Part shown: positions 1,450 to 45,792 of the stretch, piece after piece
Numbering within the stretch: the stretch's first letter is position 1
Layout of the letters: each line of letters opens with the position of its first letter
From: a virus
Strand: one strand, 5' to 3'
DNA: 64,000 bases
IMG/VR virus record: IMGVR_UViG_3300045988_148900
Location: 70,552-134,551 of that record
Notes under the pieces: generated by a model
What the model was told of the DNA's origin: nothing
The model's input: the letters and a program-made list of their open reading frames with translations, nothing else
Databases searched by the model: none
Translations under genes and position numbers: made by a program

Positions 1450-1694
1450 GGCTGTAGTAACTTTTTAAGTAATCCAAAACTCGAAAACGTGTGGTCCTAT
1501 CAGCTAAAGGCCACCAATAAACACACTTCAACTCCTCTTTATGAACATGAGGCTTACATCGGTAATCTACAGTAGTCCACGTGCGGGGCTTGAATGAACT
1601 CGTAAGATGCGGACGTGTAAACTCCTCTATGACATCGGACGTCTTTAACAACGACGGCAACCAAAAAGGCCGTGTATCATCAAAAGATAAACAC
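1442..1694 (-). pseudogene. C-terminal fragment of a phage ORF split by the tnpB element
   Basis: Frame continues exactly from 2958..3124 if the element and one AAACAC copy are removed; the track ORF 1442..1768 is a chimera that starts inside the element. Confidence 0.7.
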
Positions 1695-2957
1695 AGGTGA
1701 TTATATACAATTCTACACTGCACATATTGGCGTTTCATCGACTTCGTAACCTCCGTCTCCACGCCCATCGAACCGTCCCACCGACGGCAAAAACATCGCT
1801 AAACCCTCTCTCAAAATGTTGCTGGCGGCATTTAAGTCTCGGTCGTGGACCGTACCACATTGTGGACACGCCCAAGTCCTATTGCCTAACGTAAGACCGT
1901 CGTTCTTGTAGCCGCAACACCCACAGGTCTTGCTACTCGGGAAGAAACGGTCGATCTTTAAAACCGTCTTACCCAACCAACGCGCCTTATATTCCAAGAC
2001 ACGAACGAACTCAAACCAACATACACTCTGGATGGATTTAGCTAATCTATGGTTACCCATCATGCCCTTAACATTCAAGTCCTCGATAAAAATGGCTTGG
2101 TTCTCACCTAAAATACCGTTGACTGCATGATGGATAAAGTTATGAATTAAATTACGTTTCTTAGCATATAGTTTATTGATTTTTAATCTTATCTCCGCAC
2201 GGCGACGACTGCCTTTCTGTCGTCTTGCTTCTATTTTCTGCAAGCGGGATATCCGACGATCGATGACGTCCGCGAAACGCGGATTAGGTATCTTGCGACC
2301 GTCGGAGGTAACCACAAAGTCCTTCAAACCCAAGTCCAGCCCGACACACTTGGACTGGCTTGTGATAGGCGTGGGTTTAAGCTCAGGAACACCCGTCTCG
2401 ACAAGGCAACTCACCCAAAAGAGTCCGCAGCCGTCGCAACTTACCGTGACGTTACGTAACTGACCCGCAAACCGACGATCCTGCTTATAGCGTACTAAAC
2501 CAATCTTCGATAGTTTGATGTGACTACTTTCCTGATCGACACCACAATGGGTGGACGGAAAACGACATGATAGCTTGCTCCGATGCTTCGACTTAAACCT
2601 TGGAAAACCCTGATGCGTCCGGAAAAACATCCGGTAAGCACTATACATATCTCGAACCGACTGAACCAAACAAACCGCAGGAACGTCATACAACCATGCG
2701 TACTCGGACTTCAGGCCCGTCATCAAGTTAATACATTCGAACTCCGACAAGGACGTCTTATCTGTCTTGTAAGCCTTAATCTTAATATCAAGCGTAGCAT
2801 TATAAACAAACCGACAACAACCGAACGTCTGACGCAACATTGCCTGCTGCGTCTTGTTCGGATAAAGCCGATATTTATAAGCACGCTTCATATCACAAAG
2901 ATAGTTATTTATTTACATCTATGCAAGACGGTAGTGTAAAATTGTATGTAATCACCT
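1695..2957 (-). mobile_element. 1263-bp tnpB-only insertion element, copy A, with TIRs and 6-bp TSD
   Basis: 27-nt imperfect TIRs at 1695-1721 and 2931-2957 (24/27); direct repeats AAACAC at 1689-1694 and 2958-2963; homology to copy B stops exactly at these ends. Confidence 0.85.
1713..2891 (-). CDS. tnpB: TnpB (IS605 OrfB-family RNA-guided nuclease)
   Basis: YRLYPNKTQ start, RuvC motifs GLDLGLKD / IEDLNVKGM / HDRDLNAASNI, zinc ribbon CGCCG..CPQCG. Confidence 0.93.
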   Translation of the reverse strand: MKRAYKYRLYPNKTQQAMLRQTFGCCRFVYNATLDIKIKAYKTDKTSLSEFECINLMTGLKSEYAWLYDVPAVCLVQSVRDMYSAYRMFFRTHQGFPRFKSKHRSKLSCRFPSTHCGVDQESSHIKLSKIGLVRYKQDRRFAGQLRNVTVSCDGCGLFWVSCLVETGVPELKPTPITSQSKCVGLDLGLKDFVVTSDGRKIPNPRFADVIDRRISRLQKIEARRQKGSRRRAEIRLKINKLYAKKRNLIHNFIHHAVNGILGENQAIFIEDLNVKGMMGNHRLAKSIQSVCWFEFVRVLEYKARWLGKTVLKIDRFFPSSKTCGCCGYKNDGLTLGNRTWACPQCGTVHDRDLNAASNILREGLAMFLPSVGRFDGRGDGGYEVDETPICAV

Positions 2958-3124
2958 AAACACAAACCAATACGCTGATGCGTAGTGTAATAATGCTCCG
3001 CGCGACATATCCAACGACATATAATCCTCCGCCGCCAACTACCAACACCACTCAGAATACTCCAAACTATCCTCTTCATCTCACCTATGACAACCTTAAC
3101 TTTTGACTGTATAAATCCCTCCAA
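2958..3124 (-). pseudogene. N-terminal fragment of the phage ORF split by the tnpB element
   Basis: Reads ..HQRIGLCL up to the element boundary, then runs into the TIR; start is TTG at 3124 or ATG at 3079. Confidence 0.6.
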
Positions 3125-3150
3125 AAACCAGTTTCCGAAGCACGACTCCT

Positions 3151-4173
3151 CTACCTATTTCCAGACCGCGTGCTCACAGTACGCTCTATTAACGACCTAA
3201 GCAAAACTTCAACACCTACCTCCGACCCCAAAGCCTGCTGAGCCAAAGGAGAAAAGAAGAACCCAAACAGAGTCTTACCCAAACCTGCCTTCTGAAGCCG
3301 AAACTCAACAGAACCCTCATCAGTAGTAGCGTAAATATTACGCAACAACAAACCAACGGACATCCGAACATCTATAGTCGGATACAACAGCAACTCCGAA
3401 AGAAGAGACGACGGATCTGTACCCCCAGACTTCGAAAAGCAAGCAACAATGAAATCACGGAACTTGAAGTAAGAACTATCCAAAGCACGCGGACCCGCAA
3501 GCTCATAGAACTGAAGAAGCTGAAGAGCATTACGCATATGACCCTCCGACTTCATAGCCAAAATGTGAAGCTCGTCCGCAGACAACCGAGTACCACGACT
3601 CGCAGCGATCTTAGCAACATGAGCCTCAACCAACGGAAGAGGAATAGTACTAATGTCGATATTCACACACCGAGACTTCAAAGTAGGCGAAATATCCTCC
3701 GTACCACAAAACATGAAAATAGTATTAGGAACACCCTCCTCAACCGTCTTCAAAAGAGCATCACTACTACTACGAGAAATGGCCTGAACCTCGTCCAAGA
3801 CCACAACACGACGCCCTTCCGGCACTACCATAAGCTGCTCCTTAAGACGTCTAATCCCCTCAATATTGCCCACAACCGTACCATCAAGCTCCCAGTAAAG
3901 ACTCGAGTTGGACGCAGAAGCCTCCTGACACCCAGCACACGCATTACAAACGTCGTCCTTGTGCTTAAACTCCGTACAATTCATAGCTCTGCCAAAAATA
4001 CGAGCTATGCTTGACTTCCCTGAACCGAAGCTTCCCTTCAAAAACAAGGCCCGGGCTGCAATCCCGTCAGCATGGGCTATACGCTTCAGAGTCGTAACAG
4101 CCAAATCCTGACCAACCATCTCGCCAAAGGTCTTCGGCCTATACAAATTAGCTAAATTCTGATCCTGCGCCAT
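3151..4173 (-). CDS. clamp-loader AAA+ ATPase (DNA polymerase III gamma/tau, DnaX-like)
   Basis: LYRPKTFGEMVGQD, Walker A GSFGSGKSS, Cys cluster CNACAGC, Walker B VVVLDEV, sensor TLKSRC. Confidence 0.75.
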   Translation of the reverse strand: MAQDQNLANLYRPKTFGEMVGQDLAVTTLKRIAHADGIAARALFLKGSFGSGKSSIARIFGRAMNCTEFKHKDDVCNACAGCQEASASNSSLYWELDGTVVGNIEGIRRLKEQLMVVPEGRRVVVLDEVQAISRSSSDALLKTVEEGVPNTIFMFCGTEDISPTLKSRCVNIDISTIPLPLVEAHVAKIAASRGTRLSADELHILAMKSEGHMRNALQLLQFYELAGPRALDSSYFKFRDFIVACFSKSGGTDPSSLLSELLLYPTIDVRMSVGLLLRNIYATTDEGSVEFRLQKAGLGKTLFGFFFSPLAQQALGSEVGVEVLLRSLIERTVSTRSGNR

Positions 4174-4176
4174 AAA

Positions 4177-4509
4177 CTACTCCTCCGGCTTGAACAAAGA
4201 ATAAAGAAGATCTGCGTCCAAGGAAACCCAGAAATCTATATCAGCATCATGAAAAACCTCCGAGTGCGATATCCACTCGTCCGTGTCATGGTAAACAACT
4301 TCAACGATAAAACCACTCGTGAGAAAAGCTAAAACCGAAGACCCAACACGAGGATGTTGATCAGAAGGCTTATAAGAACGCACATCCGGACCGAAAAGAT
4401 TCTCAAGGACCGCTATAACGCCTCGCCGACACGAACCATAACTCAGAAGCCGATCCAACTCCGAAAGCCTCCGGGCTATCCCATCAACAAATGAATCAAG
4501 CTGCTTCAT
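4177..4509 (-). CDS. hypothetical protein
   Basis: 110-codon ATG ORF; weak promoter-word variant 21 nt upstream. Confidence 0.5.
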   Translation of the reverse strand: MKQLDSFVDGIARRLSELDRLLSYGSCRRGVIAVLENLFGPDVRSYKPSDQHPRVGSSVLAFLTSGFIVEVVYHDTDEWISHSEVFHDADIDFWVSLDADLLYSLFKPEE

Positions 4510-4530
4510 TGCCTTAACCCAAAAAATATA

Positions 4531-4543
4531 GGAGTTATAATTG
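4531..4543 (-). promoter_or_regulatory. degenerate promoter word (CAATTATAACTCC)
   Basis: 21 nt above ATG 4509; 3 changes from consensus. Confidence 0.25.
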
Positions 4544-5320
4544 CTACTCCCTACCTAAACACTTGAATAACTTCTCAATATGAGATACAGCTGCACCCTC
4601 CTTAGAGTACATAAGATTACGCTTCTCGTTGGACCAAATAAGCTCCCAACGCCCCCAATCCGGCTCCGTATACTCTGAAAGATAAACATCACAATGATTA
4701 TCGTCTACCTGGGAACAGGCCCAACGGTAAAAAGCAGCATGATCAAAAGCATTAGACTTCCCATCGCCTGTCTTGTATCCTGAAACGCTGCGGTAAGGAA
4801 TATCATTGTAAACCATTGATTCTGAGGGTATTACGAGATCTCTGTAGTCTCCGCTGAACAACTTGACGTCACGCATGCCGCTATGATACTTCATGGTGAA
4901 CTGACGATAGATAGATGCACGGTTCCGGTCCTGATACATCTTCCCTGCGTAGCCCTGAAAGTAAGTGGCCTTAAAGGAGCAGCAGAAGCCAACATAAGCT
5001 ATAAACCAAGACTGATACTCGTCCTTATGAGCCCGGATGTAAAGGTAATCCTCCTTAGAAACCTCCTCCGGAAAGGTGTCTGCAGGAAAGCACCACTCAC
5101 AGGTGCGCTCATCGAAGTAAACCTTCTCCTGAAGGTATTTGAACATGTCAACAATGACATGATTATACTCATTGCCCCAACGAGGACCACTCATGGCGGT
5201 AACAACATTGAAACCACCACCAAAGGCATCCACAAATAACTGATCCGGCGAACGCCTACGAGACTCCAAGATTGGAATTATCTGCTCAAGGATGCCTCCC
5301 TTGCTACCCATGTAAACCAC
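4544..5320 (-). CDS. dam: DNA N6-adenine methyltransferase (D12/Dam-like)
   Basis: N-terminal Y.GSKGG, SAM motif FVDAFGGGFNV, catalytic-like NDIPY; GTG start at 5320 or ATG at 5311; composition lacks the phage skew. Confidence 0.6.
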   Translation of the reverse strand: MVYMGSKGGILEQIIPILESRRRSPDQLFVDAFGGGFNVVTAMSGPRWGNEYNHVIVDMFKYLQEKVYFDERTCEWCFPADTFPEEVSKEDYLYIRAHKDEYQSWFIAYVGFCCSFKATYFQGYAGKMYQDRNRASIYRQFTMKYHSGMRDVKLFSGDYRDLVIPSESMVYNDIPYRSVSGYKTGDGKSNAFDHAAFYRWACSQVDDNHCDVYLSEYTEPDWGRWELIWSNEKRNLMYSKEGAAVSHIEKLFKCLGRE

Positions 5321-5343
5321 TGTAAATCTGTGTTTTATAAAGT

Positions 5344-5943
5344 TTAACTGAACCTGAACTTCAAATTAGACAAAAACTGCTCCGTAAGATCATTAAAAGG
5401 CATGTCTGGAAACATTAACGTAACACGCTTCCCATAACTGCTGTAAAACGACTGAACCTTAGAACCAGCACGAAGACCCGTGTTCGTCTCCTTGCCAAAG
5501 TCATTATCACAACAATAAGAAATATCATCAAACAAAGACAATACAATATGAGTAGCTTTTCGATTGCCTGCCAAGGACGTAAAACCTAAGACATTACGAT
5601 CCGGAAAACACAGCTTAGCAGACAGGTAATCAGAAACACCCTCAGTGATAATAACAGAGCGATCCTGTAGATTTAATAACGAAAGACCTACAAGACCAAA
5701 ATGATCTATAACCGTATCCTTAACCTTTGAACCAACGGAGCGCGTATACCAAAAAGATACCCGCGCTCCAGATGGATTAGGAAGCCGCTCGATCACATCT
5801 ACAGAAACACTCTCCGTAATAAGATTATTACGAACCTCAACACCTCCGCGAACCCCGCCCCACAACTCCAGCAACTGAAGCCACTGGTAGTTCTTAAGAC
5901 GAAAGCCATCCGGAAGACGAATGTGATCAAGCGGCAAAAGCAT
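5344..5943 (-). CDS. Toprim-domain protein (primase-like)
   Basis: VIITEGVSDYLS ... CCDNDFGKETNTG resembles Toprim E...DxD motifs. Confidence 0.5.
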   Translation of the reverse strand: MLLPLDHIRLPDGFRLKNYQWLQLLELWGGVRGGVEVRNNLITESVSVDVIERLPNPSGARVSFWYTRSVGSKVKDTVIDHFGLVGLSLLNLQDRSVIITEGVSDYLSAKLCFPDRNVLGFTSLAGNRKATHIVLSLFDDISYCCDNDFGKETNTGLRAGSKVQSFYSSYGKRVTLMFPDMPFNDLTEQFLSNLKFRFS

Positions 5944-5948
5944 GACAA

Positions 5949-6257
5949 CTACTCTGACGCCTCGCCCGAAACCCCAGCAGCCTCAGCAGACGGCGAAACA
6001 ATAGGCTCCAAATAATAGAACCCGCCCCAACGACTCCGAATCTTGAATACGTCGCCGACGAGATGCTGAACCTTATTCTTGATGACACGCAAATTGCGAA
6101 TCTCGACCTCTAACTTCGTGCACAAGTCCGTAACACTCACACGATCCCCAACAGGAACCTCCGTCAAAAGACGCCAGAAAGAAGCCTGCATGTGAGTAAG
6201 ATCAACACTTACACCATCCTTCAAAACTACACTCTCACGATCTACACTTCTTGCCAT
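5949..6257 (-). CDS. hypothetical protein
   Basis: 102-codon ATG ORF, tightly packed. Confidence 0.5.
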   Translation of the reverse strand: MARSVDRESVVLKDGVSVDLTHMQASFWRLLTEVPVGDRVSVTDLCTKLEVEIRNLRVIKNKVQHLVGDVFKIRSRWGGFYYLEPIVSPSAEAAGVSGEASE

Positions 6258-6582
6258 AATTTAAAACTTTTGTTAAAATAAAATCTATAAAGACATCTAA
6301 AATGGACTCCAAGCCTGCATAAGGACAGTACGGAAACCTAAGCTCACCATACTGTGCGTCGCAAGACCCGCTAAGTAAGCCCTCAATCTGTAAAAACGAA
6401 TCGTCTGAAACGCGTACAAGCCTAATGAAGCCAAAGACACCTAAATCGTCCCAGCCAAAACTTACACAACCACGAGTTGGGATGACAGGAGACAACAACG
6501 GCGACTGAGGCTGAACTATAAGGACATTCATCAGCTCCCACCGCAAACGACGACGCAACTCGAACTCTAAATCAAAATCCAT
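6235..6582 (-). CDS. hypothetical protein
   Basis: 115-codon ATG ORF overlapping the downstream gene by 23 nt. Confidence 0.5.
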   Translation of the reverse strand: MDFDLEFELRRRLRWELMNVLIVQPQSPLLSPVIPTRGCVSFGWDDLGVFGFIRLVRVSDDSFLQIEGLLSGSCDAQYGELRFPYCPYAGLESILDVFIDFILTKVLNYGKKCRS

Positions 6583-6624
6583 AACGCAAAAGTAAGTAGA
6601 ATAAAATTGATAAACAAATTGTAT

Positions 6625-9851: not shown

Positions 9852-9869
9852 CTCCTAAGCTTAAAAAAA

Positions 9870-10382: not shown

Positions 10383-10395
10383 AGCACATTAAAAT

Positions 10396-10408
10396 GGTAT
10401 ATAATCTC
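10396..10408 (-). promoter_or_regulatory. degenerate promoter word (AGATTATATACC)
   Basis: 13 nt above ATG 10382; partial match only. Confidence 0.2.
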
Positions 10409-10431
10409 CAAAACTAAAATAGCTTCAACAA

Positions 10432-10821: not shown

Positions 10822-10840
10822 CTCGTAGCTAATTATACCA

Positions 10841-20252: not shown

Positions 20253-21383
20253 CTAAAGCCGCGGGATTCTTGACTCAGACATGGCCGCCACCGAGGTGGG
20301 CTTACTACCACTAATCAACGCGTCCATGCCCGAACGCCGAATGTTTAACGCTGCGTTGAGATCACGATCATGATGCGTTCCGCACTGCGGACAAAGCCAT
20401 GAACGGTCAACCAACCGAAGCTCTTTATTAACGTACCCGCATCCACTGCACAGCTTGCTACTCGCAAACCACTTATCGACATGCACAACGTTCGTGTTGT
20501 ACTTAGTAGCTACGAACTCCAAGCGCGACACGAATGATGCGTGGCTGAGATCCGAAACCTTACGGCCCCATAAGCGACGCATACCATCAAGGATCAACGT
20601 CTCCAAGCAGATCGTAGAATAACACTGACAAAGATCATGCGCTAAGCGCCACTGATAATCGTCACGATGGTTGCTGATCCCACGATAGAGCCTGCTGAGT
20701 TCAAGACGCCGACGGCGGTGGTTATTTGAGCCTTTGACGGATTGGCTCAACCGCCGATGCGCCTTACGGATATCACGAAGCGTCTGCTTAAAGAATTGAG
20801 GGTTCTCGTAACTGCGCCCGTCGGATAACGTCAAATACGTCTTCAAGCCAAAGTCAATGCCTACAACCGCACCATCATGTGTCGTGTTGCTGGATTCTAC
20901 CTTAGCGTCGGTTACGACGTACAACCAAAAGTCGCCGCACGGAGCACGCTTAACGCGAACCGTCTTTATCGCACCATCAAAATTACGGGATTTATGAAAT
21001 TTATAAGTCTTCTTAAGTCTGTTGATTGTGAAGCAATTGCCGTCTATCTTATACCCATAATGCAGCTTATAGGCAAAGGATTGAAAATCCGCGGCACATC
21101 GGAACTTAGGCGGCCGCTTGGCAAGCTTCTTGAAGAAACGTTGGTACGCAGCAGCAAGTCGCTGCAACACCTCAATGCTATTGTGTGAGTACAATAGATG
21201 CCGCTTGATGCGCTTTGTAAAATGCTTCTGCATGTCAACCGTTGAAACGTACTTGCCATACATACGGTAGTATCTACGTTGAAGCGCAAGTGCGTGGTTC
21301 CATACAAACGCACACTCCCGAAGCATCCGGTCCAACCATACGGTCCGATGTGTCTTGTAGAGTTTGTATTTGTATGTCAACAT
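20253..21383 (-). CDS. tnpB: TnpB (IS605 OrfB-family RNA-guided nuclease)
   Basis: YKYKLY start, GIDFGLK, zinc ribbon CSGCG..CPQCG, HDRDLNAALNI; distinct lineage from the 392-aa copies. Confidence 0.9.
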   Translation of the reverse strand: MLTYKYKLYKTHRTVWLDRMLRECAFVWNHALALQRRYYRMYGKYVSTVDMQKHFTKRIKRHLLYSHNSIEVLQRLAAAYQRFFKKLAKRPPKFRCAADFQSFAYKLHYGYKIDGNCFTINRLKKTYKFHKSRNFDGAIKTVRVKRAPCGDFWLYVVTDAKVESSNTTHDGAVVGIDFGLKTYLTLSDGRSYENPQFFKQTLRDIRKAHRRLSQSVKGSNNHRRRRLELSRLYRGISNHRDDYQWRLAHDLCQCYSTICLETLILDGMRRLWGRKVSDLSHASFVSRLEFVATKYNTNVVHVDKWFASSKLCSGCGYVNKELRLVDRSWLCPQCGTHHDRDLNAALNIRRSGMDALISGSKPTSVAAMSESRIPRL

Positions 21384-21442
21384 TACTGTACTCTTTATGC
21401 CACAAATATAAGAATAAAATACTATCTTTGCAAATAAAAACT

Positions 21443-21841
21443 ATGCGTACACGTTGGCAGACGAATAAAGGCTCCGTCTATAATGTAGCCTATCATATCA
21501 TCTGGTGCCCCAAGTACCGGAGGAAAGTTCTTACAGGAGATATTGCCGAGCGCTTCAAGGCTTTGCTCTATGAACAAGCCGCCAAGTTCGGATGGGTTAT
21601 CGAGTCGCTGGAGGTCATGCCTGATCATGTACATCTATCCATTAAGGCTAATCCTATTGATCCGGTTGCGCGGATTGTGGCACAGCTTAAGGGCTACACG
21701 TCACACATGCTGCGGCTTGAATTTCCGTCGCTTCAGACGCGCATGCCGACCCTCTGGACGCGATCCTATTACGTCGAGACGATAGGACACATTTCAGAGG
21801 ATACGATACGTCGATATATTGAGGATCAGAAGAAAAAGTAG
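21443..21841 (+). CDS. tnpA: IS200-type Y1 (HUH) transposase TnpA
   Basis: 132 aa from ATG 21443: YHIIWCPKYRR, HUH motif DHVHLSI, catalytic Tyr region TRSYYVETIG; only credible plus-strand gene. Confidence 0.9.
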   Translation: MRTRWQTNKGSVYNVAYHIIWCPKYRRKVLTGDIAERFKALLYEQAAKFGWVIESLEVMPDHVHLSIKANPIDPVARIVAQLKGYTSHMLRLEFPSLQTRMPTLWTRSYYVETIGHISEDTIRRYIEDQKKK

Positions 21842-35741: not shown

Positions 35742-35745
35742 AATA

Positions 35746-38049: not shown

Positions 38050-38055
38050 AGCAAA

Positions 38056-38565: not shown

Positions 38566-38568
38566 AAC

Positions 38569-38952
38569 CTACACCCTAATATCTAACAACTCATCCGTAT
38601 GAACAACAGACGCAGTATCGAAAGACGACCCAACATAATGAATGCCGCATGTTAAAACACCCGGAGCCAGATAACGCAAAAAATCAGGAGTCATAATCAA
38701 ACTCCAAGACTCGCGACCCCGAACAATATAAGCACCCGAATCACCCTTCTTGCGATCCGACTCCGGAACAAAACCGCGACTATAATCCACAACCCATAAG
38801 CGAGTACTCAACTGCGACGTGTAAACACAAACCTCAATATCGTAATCCCGAACGTAAACAACATCAGAGCACTTATGAAGCGTGAAAGATAAATAAATAT
38901 CCTCCTGACGATAAAAACGCCCTAAAGAACTATGGAACACATCACAACCCAT
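38569..38952 (-). CDS. hypothetical protein
   Basis: ATG at 38952, 25 nt below the promoter word; the track N-terminal 29 codons read through the word (YAIIYP) and a terminator. Confidence 0.5.
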   Translation of the reverse strand: MGCDVFHSSLGRFYRQEDIYLSFTLHKCSDVVYVRDYDIEVCVYTSQLSTRLWVVDYSRGFVPESDRKKGDSGAYIVRGRESWSLIMTPDFLRYLAPGVLTCGIHYVGSSFDTASVVHTDELLDIRV

Positions 38953-38977
38953 GAATAGACCTCCGGAATGATTTGTG

Positions 38978-38990
38978 GGATATATAATTG
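38978..38990 (-). promoter_or_regulatory. phage-specific promoter word
   Basis: Exact; 25 nt above ATG 38952; terminator 39011-39046 just upstream. Confidence 0.55.
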
Positions 38991-39010
38991 CATAACCCAA
39001 AAGACACCCT

Positions 39011-39046
39011 AAAAGAAAAGACCCCAGAGTGAAAACCACTCCAGAG
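39011..39046 (-). terminator. rho-independent terminator
   Basis: 10-bp stem including G-U pairs that form only in the minus-strand RNA, then TCTTTTCTTTT. Confidence 0.55.
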
Positions 39047-39070
39047 CCTCATGACTAAAGAACGCACAAA

Positions 39071-39886
39071 TTAAAACTGCTTGCCGCCATTACGGAAACT
39101 GCGACACTCATTGTAAAGCATCTTAGCCTTCACGTGCCACAAGAAATCCCACGAATTGGCCGCCATCCAACGATCCAAAAAGCGCAACGCCAAGCCTAAA
39201 CGATTCGACGCCGGAATACCCATCCCAAACAAGATGCGATAAAACTCACAAGCACAATCCGTAGGATGAGACGAAGCAAAAGCTGCCTTATAAGTGGCGT
39301 CGCACAAATAAGGCGAAACTCGAGCGACCTCCAAGGATCCCGTATTTGCCAGTAAAACATCGCCCCCCGAAAGCTCCCGAAGATAACCCGTACTGCTATT
39401 GACACACAAATACTTACTGCCAATCAAATCCAACGTGTAAATAGCTACATCCGCAAGCTCCTCCTGAGGAGTGCCCTTCAAAAACTCCTCGTAAGCCGAC
39501 TTATACACAGGAACAATAGAGTCAGTAAATGAAATAATTCTGTCCGGATCAACAGTCGAACCAGAAGACACTCCATCTGCAAGCTCCTCGGACGACACGA
39601 GACGACGCATAAACAGATCCTCGAAAGACGTACTACCCGACGAAACCTTCTCCGGATGACGACGATAGACCTCAACGACCTCCGACATCTCACAAACAAT
39701 CATAGCCATATTACGAGACGTCGGCCAGTCCTGCTCCCAGAAGCCATGTGAAGAGCTAATGCTATAGCACCAATCTGCAAGACGCAGAAACTCGACATCT
39801 GTAACAGAATAAGGTGCAGGCGAAGCATCCTCATACGAACGACTCTCGAAATCCGTAAGAACAGACGTAAATAATTTATTTTTCAT
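39071..39886 (-). CDS. MazG-like nucleoside triphosphate pyrophosphohydrolase
   Basis: HGFWEQ...MIVCEMSEVVEVYRR...EELADVAIYTLDL matches the MazG/all-alpha NTP-PPase E..E / E..D helices. Confidence 0.45.
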   Translation of the reverse strand: MKNKLFTSVLTDFESRSYEDASPAPYSVTDVEFLRLADWCYSISSSHGFWEQDWPTSRNMAMIVCEMSEVVEVYRRHPEKVSSGSTSFEDLFMRRLVSSEELADGVSSGSTVDPDRIISFTDSIVPVYKSAYEEFLKGTPQEELADVAIYTLDLIGSKYLCVNSSTGYLRELSGGDVLLANTGSLEVARVSPYLCDATYKAAFASSHPTDCACEFYRILFGMGIPASNRLGLALRFLDRWMAANSWDFLWHVKAKMLYNECRSFRNGGKQF

Positions 39887-39898
39887 GAACACTTGTTG

Positions 39899-40207
39899 TT
39901 AAAAAGCCGAACAACTCGAACCCGAACTTACCCACCCATTAGGCGTAAACCGAACCCAAAAAACAAAAGGTAAATCCGGAATGGTAAAGCAGACAACCGT
40001 AGCAACAAGACGACCATCTGGTGCATAATCGCGCTCCGTCTTAGCATGCTCTAAACGACGCCCCAAATAAAAACCAGAGCAAACATGCTGTATGATAGAC
40101 GCCTCGCTAATACCGCGCATACGCTTATGAGGAAAGCCCTGCTTAACCATGCAACAATAAACGTAAAAAGCCGAGACACAATATCCCGGCTCTCTGGAAA
40201 CAAACAA
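39899..40207 (-). CDS. hypothetical protein
   Basis: TTG start at 40207 or ATG at 40150. Confidence 0.35.
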   Translation of the reverse strand: MFVSREPGYCVSAFYVYCCMVKQGFPHKRMRGISEASIIQHVCSGFYLGRRLEHAKTERDYAPDGRLVATVVCFTIPDLPFVFWVRFTPNGWVSSGSSCSAF

Positions 40208-40214
40208 AAAACGC

Positions 40215-40415
40215 CTACTGTGATAACAGCTCCTTCAGCTGAGCAAGACTCATGCGAAAAGCATAAGGACCCTCGGAATCATCTGCATAGCCTACAAACC
40301 ATACCTTATCCGCAGCAAGCCCCTGACTATTAAAAACCGATAGCATATTAATAGGAGAAACCTGAGACTCTGAAACCTCACTACCAGACGACGCGCGTGA
40401 AACAGTATCTGCCAT
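40215..40415 (-). CDS. hypothetical small protein
   Basis: ATG at 40415, 16 nt below a one-mismatch promoter word. Confidence 0.4.
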   Translation of the reverse strand: MADTVSRASSGSEVSESQVSPINMLSVFNSQGLAADKVWFVGYADDSEGPYAFRMSLAQLKELLSQ

Positions 40416-40431
40416 AACCAATCAATTTAAC

Positions 40432-40444
40432 GGATATATAATTA
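40432..40444 (-). promoter_or_regulatory. phage-specific promoter word (TAATTATATATCCGTTAAAT)
   Basis: One change; 16 nt above ATG 40415; terminator 40445-40485 abuts it. Confidence 0.5.
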
Positions 40445-40485
40445 CAAAAATGGTGCCGGAGAAACCTCGTAAGAAACCCGGCACC
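40445..40485 (-). terminator. rho-independent terminator
   Basis: GGTGCCGG-N18-CCGGCACC then ATTTTTG, abutting the promoter word. Confidence 0.55.
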
Positions 40486-40625
40486 TCAAATGCTAAAATA
40501 CTGCGTCTGGGAAAGAATCAACTACAAGAAATCCAACGCAGCTGCTGAAATCGTATCTCACGACAAAAACCCAGCTTAAAATATCATCACTAACATTTCA
40601 ACATGAGTGATGTCTCGTATACGTA

Positions 40626-40654
40626 AGAAAAAGCTCCTGATATGAATCAGGAGC
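40626..40654 (-). terminator. rho-independent terminator
   Basis: GCTCCTGA-TTCATA-TCAGGAGC then TTTTTCTT. Confidence 0.7.
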
Positions 40655-40696
40655 CCACACTACAACAATATGGATCGAACTCGCCTAAGTCCATCC

Positions 40697-40709
40697 GGAT
40701 ATATAATTG
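40697..40709 (-). promoter_or_regulatory. phage-specific promoter word
   Basis: Exact; followed only by a 15-codon ORF and a terminator about 40 nt downstream. Confidence 0.45.
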
Positions 40710-40725
40710 CTACATTGAGCCAAAC

Positions 40726-42066
40726 CTACTCCCGAGGCAGACTCCGAAGATAGGTGGCATCATAAATGCACTCCGACGCCGCCTTATCATTGCGGAAACG
40801 AATTAACTGTGGATTACGCAAGTGATAATACTTATCTAACCCGCACCCCTGAAGCTCTGCCACCATACCCATAAACTCTGGATTAAGCCGAGCAACACCC
40901 GCGTCCAAAACAGTAGCACGCTGCGACAAATGACCACTCAAAGGCAGAACTGCAAACAGCTGAGAATGCTCTCTACCATCCTCGTCGCGGCAAACAATAC
41001 TAAGATCCAACTGTGTAATACAAGACGCAGGACCGGAGCCTCCAGAAACAAAGACATCAAAAGTATCATCAAGAACCTGTGGCGAGATGTCAGTACCAAT
41101 GCGATGCTTCAACTTAACCCACACATCCTTAGAACGAGAACCCTTAGAGTTATAAAAAGCATCCCCATTATGAAACACAACACCCTCACCACCCCGGTTG
41201 AGAATAGAATCCAAAAAGGAAATCTTCTCGAATCGAGACCCAAGCACGCGAGGAATAGCACGCGCATTGACACCCGCGCGACGCAACATGTCTACACAAG
41301 ACGAATAAGCATCCCAACCCTCATGAATAGGACGGTTGAGGTAATTACGACGCCCAAAATACAAAGGACAGATAACGTTGAAAGTCAACATGTCGCGCCC
41401 CAAATGCTCCCGAAACCAAACCTGACAACGACGCGCGTCATCAGGAGACATAGAAAGCAACTCGTCAATAACCCCATCCTCAGTGCCGCAATCAATACCA
41501 GCCGACTTTGCATCCTGTAAAGTGCCATTCAAGGTCAACTCAACGTCAACTGCAATGATAGTATCAGACGGAAAATTGTGATTGCTCCAAATCATAGGAG
41601 TGTAATCGATAATAGAACAGTCATCATTGATCCCACGACCAAAGATAAACCAATCCAACGAACCCCCCATCGTATAAGACATCAATAACGCCCGAACGCC
41701 CTTAATCTTCTCCGTAGCCAACCACGCGGTAGAATCAAGGACAACATTTCTATCCTCCTCCGAAAGATCACTAAACCGAGAACATAGACAGAAGCTATCA
41801 ATGCGCAAAGCATACCACACACACGGATGGACTATCTCCTTAATAGCTGACAAATCCAAGACCTGTAGGCAAACAGGCTTTGATACAGAGTAACCCTTCT
41901 GAATCAAAGCCTTCTCGAACTCCGCAAGATAACGCAAGGCGCGCTGATAATCCGCTATGACAACCTTCCCCCCACGACCCGACGGCTGAAGCAACGACGA
42001 CAAAAATGACGGCTGATATAAAGCCTGCTTAGACGCCCATAAACGCTCGTAATCTGCCTTGACCAT
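40726..42066 (-). CDS. ATP-dependent DNA/RNA ligase-like nucleotidyltransferase
   Basis: Motif I-like EKIKGVR, motif IV GGEGVVFH, motif V VWVKLKH. Confidence 0.5.
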   Translation of the reverse strand: MVKADYERLWASKQALYQPSFLSSLLQPSGRGGKVVIADYQRALRYLAEFEKALIQKGYSVSKPVCLQVLDLSAIKEIVHPCVWYALRIDSFCLCSRFSDLSEEDRNVVLDSTAWLATEKIKGVRALLMSYTMGGSLDWFIFGRGINDDCSIIDYTPMIWSNHNFPSDTIIAVDVELTLNGTLQDAKSAGIDCGTEDGVIDELLSMSPDDARRCQVWFREHLGRDMLTFNVICPLYFGRRNYLNRPIHEGWDAYSSCVDMLRRAGVNARAIPRVLGSRFEKISFLDSILNRGGEGVVFHNGDAFYNSKGSRSKDVWVKLKHRIGTDISPQVLDDTFDVFVSGGSGPASCITQLDLSIVCRDEDGREHSQLFAVLPLSGHLSQRATVLDAGVARLNPEFMGMVAELQGCGLDKYYHLRNPQLIRFRNDKAASECIYDATYLRSLPRE

Positions 42067-42069
42067 ATA

Positions 42070-42279
42070 TTAAAAGTTTTTCCAAATAAGCAAAATACCA
42101 TTATAAGTGCTACAGAACGCTACGGCGACTAAAATTACAGAAGCCATGAAATCAACGGAGTTGAAGTAGCTCTGACGGAACAACCCAAAGAATAAAACCC
42201 CAGCAGCCCCAAACAATAAAAGACCACAGACGAATAGCAAGAAGCCAAGAAAAAGCTCTGAGACAAATCGAATAACCAT
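42070..42279 (-). CDS. small membrane protein
   Basis: Two hydrophobic helices. Confidence 0.45.
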   Translation of the reverse strand: MVIRFVSELFLGFLLFVCGLLLFGAAGVLFFGLFRQSYFNSVDFMASVILVAVAFCSTYNGILLIWKNF

Positions 42280-42284
42280 AGCTG

Positions 42285-42647
42285 TTACCTCCTAAGACAC
42301 CCAACACACTTCAAAACCGTTCGTAGCTCGTCTGCAGAAGTCACCGTACCTTCAAATACGGTAGCTAACCCACCAAAATCCGCCGCATCATAATAGTCAC
42401 TTGCCAAAATCAGACAATAATGACCCCACGGACTACCCCCTGTATTCCCATCCTCGATGAGAACAAAAAAGCCTCCGCTGTAGTCAAAAGCAGAACAGTG
42501 CGCCACTATATCAGCATAGCCACAATTCAAACCATCAGTAGCCACTAACAGCTCATCCACATCCCGAAGATCCTTCGGAACCGGAACAATACCTGTCTCA
42601 TCGTAAAACTGCCTCTCATTAGAGGTAGCTACATCCAACCAATCCAT
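42285..42647 (-). CDS. hypothetical protein
   Basis: 120-codon ATG ORF. Confidence 0.5.
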   Translation of the reverse strand: MDWLDVATSNERQFYDETGIVPVPKDLRDVDELLVATDGLNCGYADIVAHCSAFDYSGGFFVLIEDGNTGGSPWGHYCLILASDYYDAADFGGLATVFEGTVTSADELRTVLKCVGCLRR

Positions 42648-42653
42648 GAAAAA

Positions 42654-43577
42654 TTACTTCTTTAGAGTCTTCTTCTGCTTAACAGCCTCCTTACGGACCG
42701 TATCCATAGCATCCTGAACAACACCCTGAATATCACCACCCGTTACAGAAACCATCTGATCCTTATCGAACGCCGGACGCATCCAATCATCAAACAAACG
42801 ATAACGTCTATGCCATTCCGGATTATAATAAAACCCACCTAAAGAGGTGTTAGAAATAACATGAACATCATGCTCCTCTGCAATAACCATCAAGGACTGC
42901 ACAAAGGAACCAACATCAAGTAAAGACATGCTCTTAGCCAGACTCGACGAAAGACCTACATGAATATAAGTGAGATGTGGAGCTAACTCCGTAAAGACAT
43001 CTAACGCGGCCCCAATGTCTGAAATCGGGTTGAGGTCCAACCACGTTAAGAAACGAGCCGTATGGAGAGATTTGAGACCATCAACGAGGACCGAACGAGG
43101 CGACGCTCCTACGCGCTGACCAAGCATGGCAGGAAGAGTCGTGCCGAAAGAAACAATGCCGCGACGAATACCAAGCATCGCAGCATAACCCGGATACTCC
43201 TTAGCCCAATCAAGATGATCCGTAACAAAAGTCGCCGGAACACCCATAGCATTACACAACGAGAAAGAACGACCTGTAAGCTCCAGAAGCTCTTCTCGCA
43301 TAGGGTCCGCAACCATAGAGAAGAAGACACCACCATTAGCCCGAAGATCATCAAGATTCTCCACAAGCTCCTTCTCAAAAACATGATAAGCATCCTCCGT
43401 GTTCTTAAAGCACCGCTTCAAAACAGGAGACAACACAGGAGTGTCTAACCCAATGTTAGACTCGCTGTTAAACCAGCAAGCAGACGTCCGCTTCCCAAAA
43501 GAGTAAAAGTCACACGCCCAAGAAGTGTAATCGCAACCGACACCAACCGTCTTATGTAAAGCCTTATTGGAACCCAT
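42654..43577 (-). CDS. hypothetical protein
   Basis: 307-codon ATG ORF with ordinary (non-skewed) residue composition, enzyme-like but unrecognised. Confidence 0.55.
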   Translation of the reverse strand: MGSNKALHKTVGVGCDYTSWACDFYSFGKRTSACWFNSESNIGLDTPVLSPVLKRCFKNTEDAYHVFEKELVENLDDLRANGGVFFSMVADPMREELLELTGRSFSLCNAMGVPATFVTDHLDWAKEYPGYAAMLGIRRGIVSFGTTLPAMLGQRVGASPRSVLVDGLKSLHTARFLTWLDLNPISDIGAALDVFTELAPHLTYIHVGLSSSLAKSMSLLDVGSFVQSLMVIAEEHDVHVISNTSLGGFYYNPEWHRRYRLFDDWMRPAFDKDQMVSVTGGDIQGVVQDAMDTVRKEAVKQKKTLKK

Positions 43578-43639
43578 AATATTAAACCAAACAAATGAAA
43601 AACATTACCAACTTCAACGTACGACAGCACATAAAATCG

Positions 43640-44167
43640 TCAATGAGTTGCAAACCAGTCGCGAATGAAGTCAAACACCTCGCCAAAGAAGGGAAGAACA
43701 GACGAAACAGCCTCCTTTTTGTCGGGAGTAGCAAGGTTCCATATAAACATAACCGTTATATAGACAAACCAAAAGCCAAAGCAATAAAGCAACCGAGCCT
43801 TCAAGACCTCCCACCGAAGACCTAAATAACTAACCGAAAAATAGTACTTAATAGGAATAGCCATCGGCACAGCAAAGGTGAAAAGAGCATAAAGAATAAC
43901 CGACAGGATAACTCCAACCGTACACTGATCTGCCGTAAGGCACGTATCTGCGTCAAGAATAGGATAACACGAAATACCCCAAAGCAAGAACGACAACAAG
44001 GCAAAAATAACCAGCGAACCAGACTCTACAACAATATTGAAAAGAATCTTGAAAAGAGAAGAAAGAACCCCACCAATACCAGACGACTGCTTCTTTGAGG
44101 ACTCCTCATGCAAGAGAGCTAACACTGCATCATCAAAACCACTCTTGGCCTTAGCTTTAGCAAACAT
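43640..44167 (-). CDS. multi-pass membrane protein
   Basis: Four or more hydrophobic segments. Confidence 0.5.
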   Translation of the reverse strand: MFAKAKAKSGFDDAVLALLHEESSKKQSSGIGGVLSSLFKILFNIVVESGSLVIFALLSFLLWGISCYPILDADTCLTADQCTVGVILSVILYALFTFAVPMAIPIKYYFSVSYLGLRWEVLKARLLYCFGFWFVYITVMFIWNLATPDKKEAVSSVLPFFGEVFDFIRDWFATH

Positions 44168-44242
44168 AGAATTGAAAATTAAAAGTTAAACACCTACTTA
44201 AGTCACTGCAAATGTATGTTAATTAATTTAATCTATCAAATA

Positions 44243-44275
44243 AAATTAAAAAAAAGTGACCCGAATGTCACTTTT
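44243..44275 (-). terminator. rho-independent terminator (separated from its gene by tnpB element B)
   Basis: AAAAGTGAC-ATTCGG-GTCACTTTT then TTTTAATTTT. Confidence 0.65.
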
Positions 44276-44285
44276 AATTACATGT

Positions 44286-45548
44286 AGGTGATTATATACA
44301 ATTCTACACTGCATATATTGGCGTTTCACCGACTTCGTAACCTCCGTCTCCACGCCCCTCAAACCGCCCCACCGACGGCAGTATCTCCACTAAACCCGCA
44401 CGCAAAATGTTGATGGCGGCATTTAAGTCACGGTCGTGGACCGTACCACATTGTGGACACGTCCAAGATCGGTCCTTAAGTGTAAGACCATCGTTCTTAT
44501 AACCGCAACAACCACAAGTCTTGCTGCTCGGGAAGAAACGGTCGATCTTTAAAACCGTCTTACCAAGCCACCGCGCCTTGTAATCCAAGACACGAACAAA
44601 CTCGGACCAACAAATGTTTTGAATGGATTTAGCCAAACTGTGATTACCCATCATACCCTTAACATTCAAGTCCTCGATAAACACGGCTTGGTTCTCACCC
44701 AGTATCGAGTTGACTGTATGATGGATAAAGTTATTAATCAAATTACGTTTCTTAGCATATAACTTATTGATTTTAAGTCTTATCTCCGCACGGCGTCTAC
44801 TGCCTTTCTGGCGGCGGGACTCGATCTTCTGCAGACGCGATATGCGGCGATCTATAACATCCGCGAAACGCGGATTAGGTATCTTACGTCCATCGGATGT
44901 AACTATGAAGTCCTTCAACCCCAAGTCAAGACCAACGCACTTAGACTGGCTTGTGATAGGCGCGGGTTTAAGCTCAAGAACACCCGTCTCCACAAGACAA
45001 CTAACCCAATAACGTCCGCAACCATCGCAGCTCACCGTGATGTTACGTAACTGCCCTTTGAACCGACGATCTTGCTTATATTTAATCAAACCGATTTTCG
45101 GCAATTTAATGTGACGCGTTTCTTGGTCTACAGAGCAGAAGGGAACCGAAAATCTACACGATAATTTACTACGATGTTTGGACTTAAACTTTGGGTAACC
45201 CTGCTTGATCTTAAAGAATTGCTGATAAGCACTATCCATGTCATAGACTGCCTGCGGCAGACATACATGCGGAACAACACGCAACCACTCATGCTCTTCC
45301 TTAAGACCTGTAATTAACTTGATGCAGTCGAACTTAGACAACGTCGTCTTATCCGCCTCATATGCCTTTATCTTAGCAGCAAGTGTGGCGTTATAAATGA
45401 ACCGACAACAATCGAACGACTGACGCAACATCGCCTCCTGCGTCTTGTTCGGATAAAGTCGGTATTTATAGGCACGCTTCATGATGCTAATATAGTTGTT
45501 TATTTACGTCTATGCAAGCTGTTAGTGCAAAATTGTATGTAATCACCT
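44286..45548 (-). mobile_element. 1263-bp tnpB-only insertion element, copy B, with TIRs and 6-bp TSD
   Basis: Left end identical to copy A; TIRs 44286-44312 and 45522-45548 (22/27); direct repeats ACATGT at 44280-44285 and 45549-45554. Confidence 0.85.
44304..45482 (-). CDS. tnpB: TnpB (IS605 OrfB-family RNA-guided nuclease)
   Basis: 392 aa, collinear with copy A with many substitutions; all RuvC and zinc-ribbon motifs intact. Confidence 0.93.
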   Translation of the reverse strand: MKRAYKYRLYPNKTQEAMLRQSFDCCRFIYNATLAAKIKAYEADKTTLSKFDCIKLITGLKEEHEWLRVVPHVCLPQAVYDMDSAYQQFFKIKQGYPKFKSKHRSKLSCRFSVPFCSVDQETRHIKLPKIGLIKYKQDRRFKGQLRNITVSCDGCGRYWVSCLVETGVLELKPAPITSQSKCVGLDLGLKDFIVTSDGRKIPNPRFADVIDRRISRLQKIESRRQKGSRRRAEIRLKINKLYAKKRNLINNFIHHTVNSILGENQAVFIEDLNVKGMMGNHSLAKSIQNICWSEFVRVLDYKARWLGKTVLKIDRFFPSSKTCGCCGYKNDGLTLKDRSWTCPQCGTVHDRDLNAAINILRAGLVEILPSVGRFEGRGDGGYEVGETPIYAV

Positions 45549-45792
45549 ACATGTATTTCTGCTCCCAAGCTTCAAGAGCTGATTCTAACTCAGGAGGAAT
45601 TAATTCTGAACGATCGATATCCCTAATCGTAGTCAGAAAAGACTCAATGCTACTAACCAAAGGACGAGTATCTGTCAACAACTGAGCCTCAGCAAGATCA
45701 ACAGCCTTCAAGCAATCGAATCTGTCAAACTTGCCAGAAGTATGCAGAAGAATAAACTCCTCAGCATCTGAACTATAAGGACGACGTTTCAT
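45547..45792 (-). CDS. hypothetical protein (stop codon rebuilt by the element end)
   Basis: Ends ..EQKYM then TAG, made of T from the target duplication plus AG from the TIR. Confidence 0.5.
   Translation of the reverse strand: MKRRPYSSDAEEFILLHTSGKFDRFDCLKAVDLAEAQLLTDTRPLVSSIESFLTTIRDIDRSELIPPELESALEAWEQKYM

Follow-up and report, generated by a model that had tools for sequence, protein, structure and literature searches.

The window analyzed here, a stretch of 64,000 nucleotides (positions 70,552 to 134,551 of IMG/VR record IMGVR_UViG_3300045988_148900), contains two elements in which tnpB is the only gene. The host of both is a crAss-like gut phage. Copy A lies at 1696 to 2956 and copy B at 44287 to 45547, each on the minus strand and 1,261 bp long, with the termini GGTGATTA…TAATCACC. 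Homology of copy A to copy B and to eight copies in related phages (L001 to L008) stops at these bounds. Each copy encodes one intact TnpB of 392 amino acids on the minus strand (1713 to 2891 in copy A and 44304 to 45482 in copy B), and no second open reading frame with a family match was found inside either element. The two proteins are 82% identical, and the elements as first bounded (1695 to 2957 and 44286 to 45548) form a gap-free alignment in which 80.5% of the nucleotides (1,017 of 1,263) are identical, with similarity ending at those bounds. Since the copies are 20% diverged, neither can be a recent duplicate of the other.

The termini are imperfect inverted repeats, with 24 of 27 positions matching in copy A and 22 of 27 in copy B. 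In copy A, the right-end repeat lies at 1696 to 1721 (minus strand; GGTGATTATATACAATTCTACACTGC, read inward) and the left-end repeat at 2931 to 2956 (minus strand; GGTGATTACATACAATTTTACACTAC). The tnpB stop codon of the two copies is 17 to 18 nucleotides from the element end. An 18-mer motif from the ends has exactly four matches without mismatch in the window, for a shuffle expectation of 0.12, and a fifth match with three mismatches at 10393 to 10410; a chance origin of the ends and repeats is excluded. The first-pass annotation, made from the window alone, had described two collinear and intact tnpB-only copies with inverted ends, a stop codon close to the element end, and flanking direct repeats, all of which our analysis confirmed.

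The same annotation had proposed a 6-bp target duplication and an element of 1,263 bp. The flanking 6-mers, AAACAC in copy A and ACATGT in copy B, are perfect repeats that lie within longer 8-bp duplications. For copy A, TAAACACA (plus strand) is found at 1688 to 1695 on the right-end side and, identically, at 2957 to 2964 on the left-end side; for copy B, TACATGTA is found at 44279 to 44286 and 45548 to 45555, respectively. Three related phage contigs per copy have an empty site with a single repeat (L018 to L020 for copy A and L021 to L023 for copy B), showing that these are true duplications. The 8-mers of sister elements (GACACAAT, ATTAAAAT, CTTGTATA, and TGCATGAG) are all perfect (8/8), including those with T…G or C…A ends. 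Because 8-mers that lack an initial T and a final A stay perfect, the 6-bp model was rejected in favor of 8 bp; the outer A/T, which the first-pass annotation had counted as part of the element, thus belongs to the target, and the element is 1,261 bp long. About 10 independent short elements with these ends, the window copies aside, have perfect 8/8 duplications; many older copies have no matching duplications. Targets are AT rich and often of the form T-N6-A, and the sequences that precede the left ends at the insertion sites share no convincing TAM-like motif. At copy B, the left-end-side duplication and the element's first G jointly restore a TAG stop codon for an upstream 81-amino-acid open reading frame. 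Both window copies are absent from phages with 90 to 97% identical flanks, so the insertions are not much older than the divergence of those phages.

The ends are not restricted to the TnpB found in the window. The same 17- to 23-nucleotide end bounds TnpBs of 392, 371, 407, and 415 amino acids, all matching Pfam OrfB_IS605, with mutual identities of just 21 to 45%. The same end and 8-bp duplications were also found on elements of 183, 227, and 327 to 333 bp without an open reading frame, one of which has 88 nucleotides in common with a TnpB element at its right end. Ends and cargo thus vary independently. Since no fewer than four unrelated TnpB lineages lie between the same ends, TnpB must have been captured more than once, and it is always the sole product of the short protein-coding elements that have them.

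Elements with similar ends that do encode a transposase belong to the IS1595 family. At least 20 elements in viral contigs, in addition to L312, encode a protein with the Pfam domains DDE_Tnp_IS1595 and Zn_ribbon_IS1595 (NCBIfam IS1595 transposase, 207 bits against a cutoff of 75), and these elements have the ends GGTAAYTATATAC…TTTACAC and perfect 8-bp duplications. One of them is present at four different sites (L382, L391, L392, and L394), and its right end matches 20 of 26 positions of the window right end and 22 of 24 of a miniature element (L096). In a transposase group at 71% identity (L432, L434, and L435), the right end is GGTGATTATATACAACTTTACACCAT, of which the first 15 nucleotides are those of the window right end (20 to 22 of 26 overall), and the L434-group right end is identical to the window left end at 22 of 26 positions. 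In at least three phage contigs (3300045988_086157, 3300014572_000003, and 3300045988_087310), an IS1595 transposase occurs alongside a TnpB element or the end of one. The autonomous elements have epsilon crAss-like flanks. They reside in a crAss-like lineage that differs from that of the window and shares no nucleotide similarity with it. An IS1595 form with cargo, a Dam methylase and a PD-(D/E)XK nuclease, was also found (L318). Beyond phages, an IS1595-family insertion sequence on a Sinorhizobium plasmid shows GGCCTTTATC… at its end and is flanked by a perfect 8-bp duplication. In ISfinder, the ISNwi1 subgroup is characterized by ends of the form ggnnatTAT and an 8-bp repeat. ISApl4 has AT-rich 8-bp repeats (PMC12561309), and ISBun1 of Bacteroides uniformis has been classed as IS1595/ISNwi1 (PMC12382657). 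The window elements have the AT-rich 8-bp duplication of the family (TAAACACA, TACATGTA, and the approximately 10 sister 8-mers) and inverted ends like those of its transposase-encoding members. They contain no DDE_Tnp_IS1595 gene and are therefore non-autonomous derivatives rather than insertion sequences proper.

We searched for the transposase and for a reservoir of the elements. None of the 49 open reading frames of the window belongs to a DDE family, and tblastn with IS1595 transposases gave no match in the window, in L001 to L141, or in the genome of phage csAssE-Sib. In the window's own phage lineage, as represented by 64 kb of a genome of approximately 135 to 142 kb and the best 80 relatives, no IS1595 transposase was found, and tblastn of IS1595 transposases against the annotated phage collection gave no crAss-like match. 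A 36-nucleotide end searched against annotated phages and plasmids had a single useful match, csAssE-Sib, the complete genome annotation of which contains no transposase besides TnpB. Host genomes were rejected as a reservoir, as a 23-mer of the end had just six matches among 185,579 species (one genome each): a miniature element of 227 bp from the chromosome of a Chryseobacterium, a TnpB copy in a Muribaculaceae MAG contig, and others that were ambiguous. An Alistipes MAG contig breaks off at an element end, and a metagenome scan found no sequence to extend it. Two further candidate partners were discarded. The IS1595-like genes of gut Bacteroides (P0132, P0220, P0223, and the L149 family, L162 to L241) are at fixed sites and lack these ends, and ISBbi1 from a Myroides plasmid, which has CTGATT ends, falls into a different IS1595 subgroup.

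Both TnpBs match Pfam HTH_OrfB_IS605, OrfB_IS605, and Cas12f1-like_TNB (E value of the last, 4.5e-24). The NCBIfam guided_TnpB score of 325 bits exceeds the 100-bit cutoff, and the IS200_TnpB score of 388 bits is under its cutoff of 425. Among PDB structures, the top match was the designed RNA-guided nuclease 9yyg, with which the D-E-D motifs GLDLG, IEDLN, and HDRD align; the comparison with ISDra2 TnpB (8BF8/8EXA; E value, 1e-67) is by E value alone. By these motifs, the RuvC D-E-D triad is intact. Together with the zinc-finger/TNB domain and a conserved structured RNA that overlaps the tnpB 3' end and stops where the transposon does, these are features of OMEGA systems and speak for a functional cargo. 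The putative omega-RNA scaffold, three stem-loops in the 3' region of the tnpB transcript, was predicted at 1702 to 1788 (minus strand; 5' limit undefined) from 18 relatives with RNAalifold, with 99.8% of cells paired compared to 92.4% in shuffles and 24 to 52% in slid controls, and with compensatory changes at four pairs. In this model, TTGTATATA in the right inverted repeat is the 3' arm of the terminal hairpin, and the covariation-supported structure ends inside that repeat. This fits the proposal of the first-pass annotation that a scaffold would lie within the open reading frame and finish in the inverted repeat. The region has no match in Rfam. Pairing of the left with the right inverted repeat as an RNA stem was rejected, as the left end decays with no compensating change in the right end. 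Given an 8-bp duplication, the putative guides would start TGTGTTTA… in copy A and TACATGTA… in copy B. The copy A guide would be TGTGTTTATCTTTTGATGAT (1676 to 1695, minus strand), directly 3' of the scaffold and made up of the duplication and adjoining phage DNA. The copy B guide would be completed by TACATGTAATTAAAAGTGAC… (44259 to 44278, minus strand), which is unchanged in two of the empty sites (L022 and L023).

From these comparisons, both elements are very probably non-autonomous IS1595-family transposons that carry TnpB and its guide RNA as cargo and are mobilized in trans. Trans mobilization of a TnpB cargo element was one of two readings offered by the first-pass annotation, and the IS1595 elements, which share near-identical ends and the same 8-bp duplication, are the likely partner. 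The element would retain only the approximately 23- to 26-bp inverted repeats recognized by an IS1595-type DDE transposase. A transposase supplied from elsewhere would cut the target with an 8-bp stagger and join the element to it, and repair of the stagger would produce the duplication. The acting transposase could come from an autonomous IS1595 element located beyond the window in the phage's own genome, from a co-infecting crAss-like phage, or from the host. Roughly the last 90 or more nucleotides of tnpB would form the conserved stem-loops. As this RNA is predicted to end in the right repeat, read-out of the flank would give a guide consisting of the duplication and neighboring phage DNA.

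Several other explanations were considered. TnpB, with a RuvC fold related to that of DDE enzymes, might itself be the transposase of an autonomous, new self-mobilizing insertion sequence. TnpB is, after all, the sole product of every short protein-coding element with these ends, and neither the window nor the complete csAssE-Sib genome holds another candidate transposase for them. Against this, TnpBs only 21% identical have near-identical ends, which therefore do not covary with the protein, miniature elements without an open reading frame have the same ends and duplications, and canonical IS1595 DDE transposase elements are bounded by the same ends and 8-bp duplication. In IS608 and ISDra2, moreover, TnpB is dispensable for transposition, and to our knowledge strand transfer by TnpB has never been demonstrated. 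We consider this explanation very improbable. Even less credible is a derivation from IS200/IS605 elements (IS1341 group) whose single-stranded form is mobilized by a Y1 TnpA such as that of the canonical IS605 copy resident at 20253 to 21841. The TnpB is typical of that type (IS200_TnpB and ISDra2 scores above), and the Y1 TnpA is encoded in the same window. However, the resident copy lacks the ends of the tnpB-only elements, which are inverted repeats and not asymmetric hairpin ends, and the variable 8-bp duplications, confirmed by the empty sites, are at odds with Y1 transposition, which gives no duplication and requires a fixed 4- to 5-nucleotide target 5' of the left end. The empty-site comparison thus refutes an IS200/IS605 origin for the two insertions. 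Nor do they resemble IS607 elements, as there is no open reading frame for a serine recombinase TnpA and inverted ends and a duplication are present. The annotation had read this architecture as foreign to IS200/IS605 and as the signature of DDE-type staggered cutting, and that reading stands.

It is also conceivable, though unlikely, that the copies are immobile relics retained because TnpB is useful, for example, against competing phages, with the duplications recording old insertions. Consistent with this, copies A and B differ by 20%, several copies (e.g., L001 and L008) occupy orthologous sites in diverged phages, and all 10 copies of the window lineage (A, B, and L001 to L008) are co-oriented with phage genes. 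In four of them (L003, L004, L005, and L008), the left end is decayed or replaced while tnpB and the right end are intact. This decay, seen in old copies, also speaks for the preferred explanation, as it fits a left end used for transposition only and a right end with a second role in the RNA. In contrast, the ends of both window copies are intact and their duplications perfect, and the copies are missing where phage flanks are 90 to 97% identical. Retention of this kind is compatible with the preferred explanation of trans-mobilized IS1595-type transposons.

If such a transposon makes a guide from its own flank, it is possible, if somewhat doubtful, that it homes: TnpB-RNA would cut insertion-free phage genomes during co-infection, and recombinational repair would copy the element in. 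Homing of this kind would keep the element in phage populations. The absence of a common TAM-capable motif upstream of the sites speaks against this step. A more elaborate version is a phage gene drive with two engines, in which the IS1595 transposase would seed new sites and TnpB, guided by the duplication and flank, would cut the empty allele of a co-infecting phage so that recombination copies the element in. We regard this as rather unlikely; for want of a common upstream motif, it would require a TnpB that works without a transposase-defined TAM. The miniature elements without open reading frames might then carry guide RNAs on their own and direct TnpB to other targets in trans.

A partnership of TnpB with DDE transposons is rare and has already been reported. 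Altae-Tran et al. (2023, PNAS; PMC10691335) described, in the main text, six TnpB branches linked to DDE transposases, every one of which has inverted terminal repeats, as well as solo TnpBs whose ends are nearly identical to those of transposase-bearing relatives. The alternative raised by the first-pass annotation, a mobility mode not yet described for tnpB, does not hold in view of that report. Three points appear to be new: IS1595 as the partner, crAss-like phages as the niche, and the capture of different TnpBs on several occasions. This would add IS1595 to the short list of prokaryotic DDE transposons with TnpB, in phages that are among the most abundant human gut viruses, and would give the Fanzor elements of eukaryotic viruses a counterpart among prokaryotes. 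An RNA-guided nuclease usually depends on a target motif set by the transposase, but the carrier here is a transposon with variable insertion sites and 8-bp duplications, a test case for how TnpB benefits a transposon. The practical yield is a set of compact TnpB/RNA pairs with defined transposon ends and a candidate transposase.

The window elements resemble the DDE-associated and solo TnpBs of PMC10691335, as far as its main text describes them, in having TnpB inside an inverted-repeat transposon with the tnpB 3' end near the transposon end; as in the solo TnpBs, ends that match those of transposase-bearing relatives imply trans mobilization. Unlike the DDE-associated TnpBs, the partner here is IS1595, which is not mentioned in the main text of that paper (supplement aside) and is absent from the list of TnpB partners in a review that summarizes them as ISL2, IS630, and IS1031 (PMC13565253). 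In comparison with the DDE-associated branches of that main text, an ordinary ISDra2-like TnpB is involved, at least four lineages share one set of ends, and the carriers are crAss-like phages; identity with one of the six branches may nevertheless apply. The elements share with IS1595 insertion sequences the AT-rich 8-bp duplication and the 23- to 26-bp inverted ends starting GGnnnTTAT/GGTAAYTATATAC, and cargo-carrying forms (L318) and miniature forms exist in that family as well. They differ from them in lacking a transposase gene and in having as sole cargo an RNA-guided nuclease, the putative RNA of which overlaps the right end. With the IS1341 group, they share the tnpB-only content, the length of approximately 1.3 kb, the ISDra2-like TnpB, and a predicted RNA scaffold that overlaps the tnpB 3' end. 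Unlike IS200/IS605 elements, which have no inverted ends, no duplication, subterminal hairpins, and a fixed 4- to 5-nucleotide target (PMC13565253, PMC4810608), they have inverted ends conserved across four TnpB lineages and 8-bp duplications of variable sequence. The Fanzor1 element of Spodoptera frugiperda ascovirus 1a, with inverted ends and short duplications, is likewise virus borne, present in two copies, and non-autonomous, and encodes only a TnpB-family nuclease (PMC10711439). Its guide RNA spans both inverted repeat and duplication (PMC10711439), as the putative RNA of the window elements would. That element combines a eukaryotic virus with Fanzor (PMC10711439), whereas here a bacteriophage carries a prokaryotic TnpB and the partner transposon family is identified.

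Two elements that carry only tnpB lie in the window at positions 1696 to 2956 (copy A) and 44287 to 45547 (copy B), each running GGTGATTA…TAATCACC over 1,261 bp with tnpB on the minus strand. A gapless alignment of the two gives 80.5% identity, with similarity ending at the boundaries given in the first-pass annotation, whose placement of the copies is confirmed. As had been reported, each contains one intact 392-aa open reading frame (ORF). The three Pfam domains of TnpB are found in both, and the two proteins, judged by eye to be 80 to 90% identical, are 82% identical. The ends form the imperfect inverted repeats described earlier, matching at 24/27 positions in copy A and 22/27 in copy B; four mismatch-free occurrences of the end motif were counted in the window, against 0.12 expected from shuffles.

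The 6-mers flanking both copies are perfect, and comparison with homologous sites, fetched from related IMG/VR contigs by means of neighboring phage genes, shows that they are part of genuine target duplications of 8 bp, not the 6 bp first proposed. An empty site was found in three phages for copy A (in tnpB orientation, …TATTGGTT TGTGTTTA TCTTTTGAGG…) and in three for copy B (…GAGA TACATGTA ATTAAAAG…), with the duplicated sequence present once in each. On the plus strand the duplications read TAAACACA (copy A) and TACATGTA (copy B). The perfect 8-mers flanking some sister elements lack the combination of an initial T and a final A (GACACAAT, ATTAAAAT, CTTGTATA, and TGCATGAG), so that the outer T and A belong to the target rather than the element, hence the 1,261-bp limits used here. 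Perfect 8/8 duplications were seen in approximately 10 independent insertions beyond the two window copies. Insertion of copy A has interrupted a 137-aa phage ORF, which the related phage contig L019 retains intact. Copy B is inserted exactly where an 81-aa ORF has its stop codon, recreating a TAG stop, upstream of the terminator hairpin of that gene.

Scanning viral contigs for the 17-mer end sequence turned up no fewer than five kinds of element bounded by it: those of 1,258 to 1,263 bp with the 392-aa TnpB, those of ~1,325 bp with a 371-aa TnpB (45% identical), those of 1,347 to 1,349 bp with a 407-aa protein, those of ~1,326 bp with a 415-aa protein, and ORF-less elements of 183 and 327 to 333 bp. 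The 407-aa and 415-aa proteins belong to the TnpB family by Pfam, the former being only ~21% identical to the window TnpB. A genome scan added a 227-bp ORF-less element in a Chryseobacterium chromosome. Such miniature elements, 183 to 333 bp long with perfect 8-bp duplications (contig loci L067, 3043 to 3372; L096, 13995 to 14327; L111, 28 to 210 and 2908 to 3236; L138, 4031 to 4257), have no similarity to the tested TnpB classes outside the ~23- to 26-nt ends, except for an 88-nt stretch of the 330-bp element that recurs at the right end of the 407-aa class. The 330-bp element folds strongly (z = −4.0, a value partly due to pairing between its inverted ends) and may carry a stand-alone guide-RNA scaffold. 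Constancy of the ends while the proteins diverge to 21% identity, together with the existence of protein-less copies, argues that the ends are recognized by a third party and not by the TnpB cargo.

No DDE family was detected among 49 window ORFs, nor does the annotation of csAssE-Sib, a complete epsilon crAss-like phage with one of the 407-aa elements, list any (PMC11054128). The 8-bp duplication and the GGnnnTTAT start of the ends pointed to the IS1595 family, for which an AT-rich 8-bp repeat is documented in ISApl4 (PMC12561309); in an IS1595-family element on a Sinorhizobium plasmid, a perfect 8-bp duplication accompanies the end GGCCTTTATC…. Searches of viral contigs with an IS1595 transposase alignment and with the transposases of two phage-contig elements (L318 and L392) matched hundreds of phage-contig copies. 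Twenty transposase elements and a further one in L312 have GGTAAYTATATAC…TTTACAC ends and perfect 8-bp duplications, and the proteins match Pfam DDE_Tnp_IS1595 and Zn_ribbon_IS1595 and the NCBIfam IS1595 model (207 bits). One element of 3.7 to 5.5 kb, containing the transposase and lipoprotein-like cargo, occupies four different sites in L382, L391, L392, and L394 (duplications TAAGGTTA, TTATGTTA, TTTAATAG, and TAATGGAA, respectively); counted by hand, its right end is identical to the window right end at 20/26 positions and to a miniature element at 22/24. A transposase group 71% identical to the L392 type has the right end GGTGATTATATACAACTTTACACCAT, which is identical to the window right end over 15 nt and matches the left ends of the window elements at 22/26 positions and of the csAssE-Sib element at 25/26. 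The flanks of these autonomous elements are epsilon crAss-like by tblastx, and in at least three contigs the transposase co-occurs with a TnpB element or with the end of one. Since the transposase was not found in the window or in loci L001 to L141, mobilization would occur in trans. From these shared ends and duplication lengths, copies A and B are most likely cargo elements mobilized by an IS1595-family transposase, which bears out one of the two readings that the first-pass annotation had offered.

The cargo of a 2,432-bp IS1595-family element on a 75.9-kb viral contig (L318, 1402 to 3833; the same element in L322, 3935 to 6366) consists of genes for a D12-class adenine methyltransferase and a PD-(D/E)XK nuclease, which look like a mobile restriction-modification pair; the duplication of this element is ATTGTTTA. 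One autonomous IS1595 element in L372 has TATGATTA on both sides (positions 880 and 5168), inverted instead of directly repeated, suggesting inversion between two copies. In L423 and L425 (2747 to 2797), a 51-bp unit of two facing ends (GGTGATTATATACCATTTTAC…) lies ~45 nt past an autonomous IS1595 right end. IS1595-like genes of gut Bacteroides (L150 to L158 and L162 to L241) were rejected as candidates, as they occupy fixed chromosomal sites and neither group has recognizable inverted ends; they may have been domesticated or belong to a larger unit, and one protein group (P0132/P0220/P0223) adjoins a small ORF and a SocA_Panacea toxin-antitoxin gene.

Among the matches listed, the TnpB family comprises ~20 clusters at 80 to 92% identity and ~80 at 56 to 64%, many on gut metagenome contigs of up to 145 kb and often in several copies per contig. 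The window itself is the empty site, by comparison of homologous sites, for four insertions of related phages, those of L007 (~32420/32421), L008/L001 (61760 to 61762), L003 (6607 to 6616), and L002 (54724 to 54815); the lineage is therefore polymorphic at at least six insertion sites. In the closest relatives among the matches listed (L001 to L008), the right end, on the side of the tnpB stop codon, is conserved throughout, while the left end is decayed in L006 and L008 and replaced in L003 to L005, and the flanking 8-mers mostly no longer match. Some right flanks of old copies have lost phage DNA starting precisely from the element end (107 bp in L001/L061; 7 bp in L029 versus L028). In 15 of 16 right flanks, T comes next after …CACC, including in copies whose duplication has disappeared. 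Adjacent deletion caused by intramolecular transposition and scarring from TnpB cleavage are possible causes. Beyond the right end in L006 (4201 to 4221), the final 10 nt of the element, ATAATCACCT, are repeated three times in tandem. A DDE transposon is expected to insert in either orientation, yet all 10 TnpB elements of the window lineage (A, B, and L001 to L008) are co-oriented with the surrounding phage genes, so selection is likely, through read-through expression or avoidance of antisense transcription. Upstream in phages with a 60%-identity TnpB group (L024 to L029, 1 to 1672), the family A DNA polymerase gene is broken by intein/LAGLIDADG-type insertions.

The window TnpB aligns over its full length to ISDra2 TnpB structures (E value, 1e-67), and its three RuvC motifs line up with those of the designed nuclease 9yyg. 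From the last 171 nt of 18 relatives, RNA structure alignment predicted three stem-loops, with 99.8% of cells paired, compared with 92.4% in shuffles and 24 to 52% with partners slid, and compensatory changes at four pairs. The terminal hairpin takes in bases of the right inverted repeat, in keeping with the earlier proposal of a scaffold inside the ORF that ends in the repeat. The right end would thus serve both as DNA site for the transposase and as RNA scaffold, a double role that would account for its being the conserved end. The guide would then consist of the duplication and adjoining phage DNA. A homing role for TnpB is possible, though no TAM-like motif is shared upstream of the insertion sites compared.

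The window is phage DNA, with long ORFs all on one strand and neither tRNA genes nor Rfam matches. The sole match of a 1,243-aa window protein in the annotated phage collection is the crAss-like "uncultured phage cr108_1." One of 49 scanned ORFs matches Pfam Tad3, a Thoeris anti-defense protein (E value, 8e-13), and others match BACON, RecA, sigma-70 region 2, and a clamp-loader subunit, matches that fit a Bacteroidota-infecting crAss-like phage. Separate from copies A and B, a canonical IS200/IS605 copy at 20253 to 21841 comprises a 376-aa tnpB on the minus strand (20253 to 21383), ~30% identical to both, and a divergent Y1 tnpA on the plus strand (21443 to 21841; NCBIfam IS200/IS605 transposase, 140 bits); it lacks the inverted ends that bound A and B.

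IS200/IS605 and IS607 elements have neither inverted ends nor duplications (PMC13565253, PMC4810608, and PMC6188088), whereas copies A and B have both, which rules out membership in either. The partnership of TnpB with DDE transposases is itself already known. Altae-Tran et al. 2023 described six TnpB branches associated with DDE transposases, every one having inverted terminal repeats, and mobilization in trans was concluded for solo TnpBs from ends nearly matching those of transposase-bearing relatives (PMC10691335). Given these reports, the other first-pass reading, an undescribed mobility mode for tnpB, is not supported, and mobilization in trans is the reading retained. A 2026 review gives the TnpB partners as ISL2, IS630, and IS1031 (PMC13565253); IS1595 is not named in the main text of either paper, and our literature search found no paper linking TnpB to IS1595 ends. 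Among viruses, the nearest counterpart is Fanzor1 in an ascovirus, an element present in two copies and whose transposase family was not identified there (PMC10711439). Against this background, what looks new here is the IS1595 partner, the crAss-like phage niche, the repeated capture of different TnpBs, and the protein-less derivatives.
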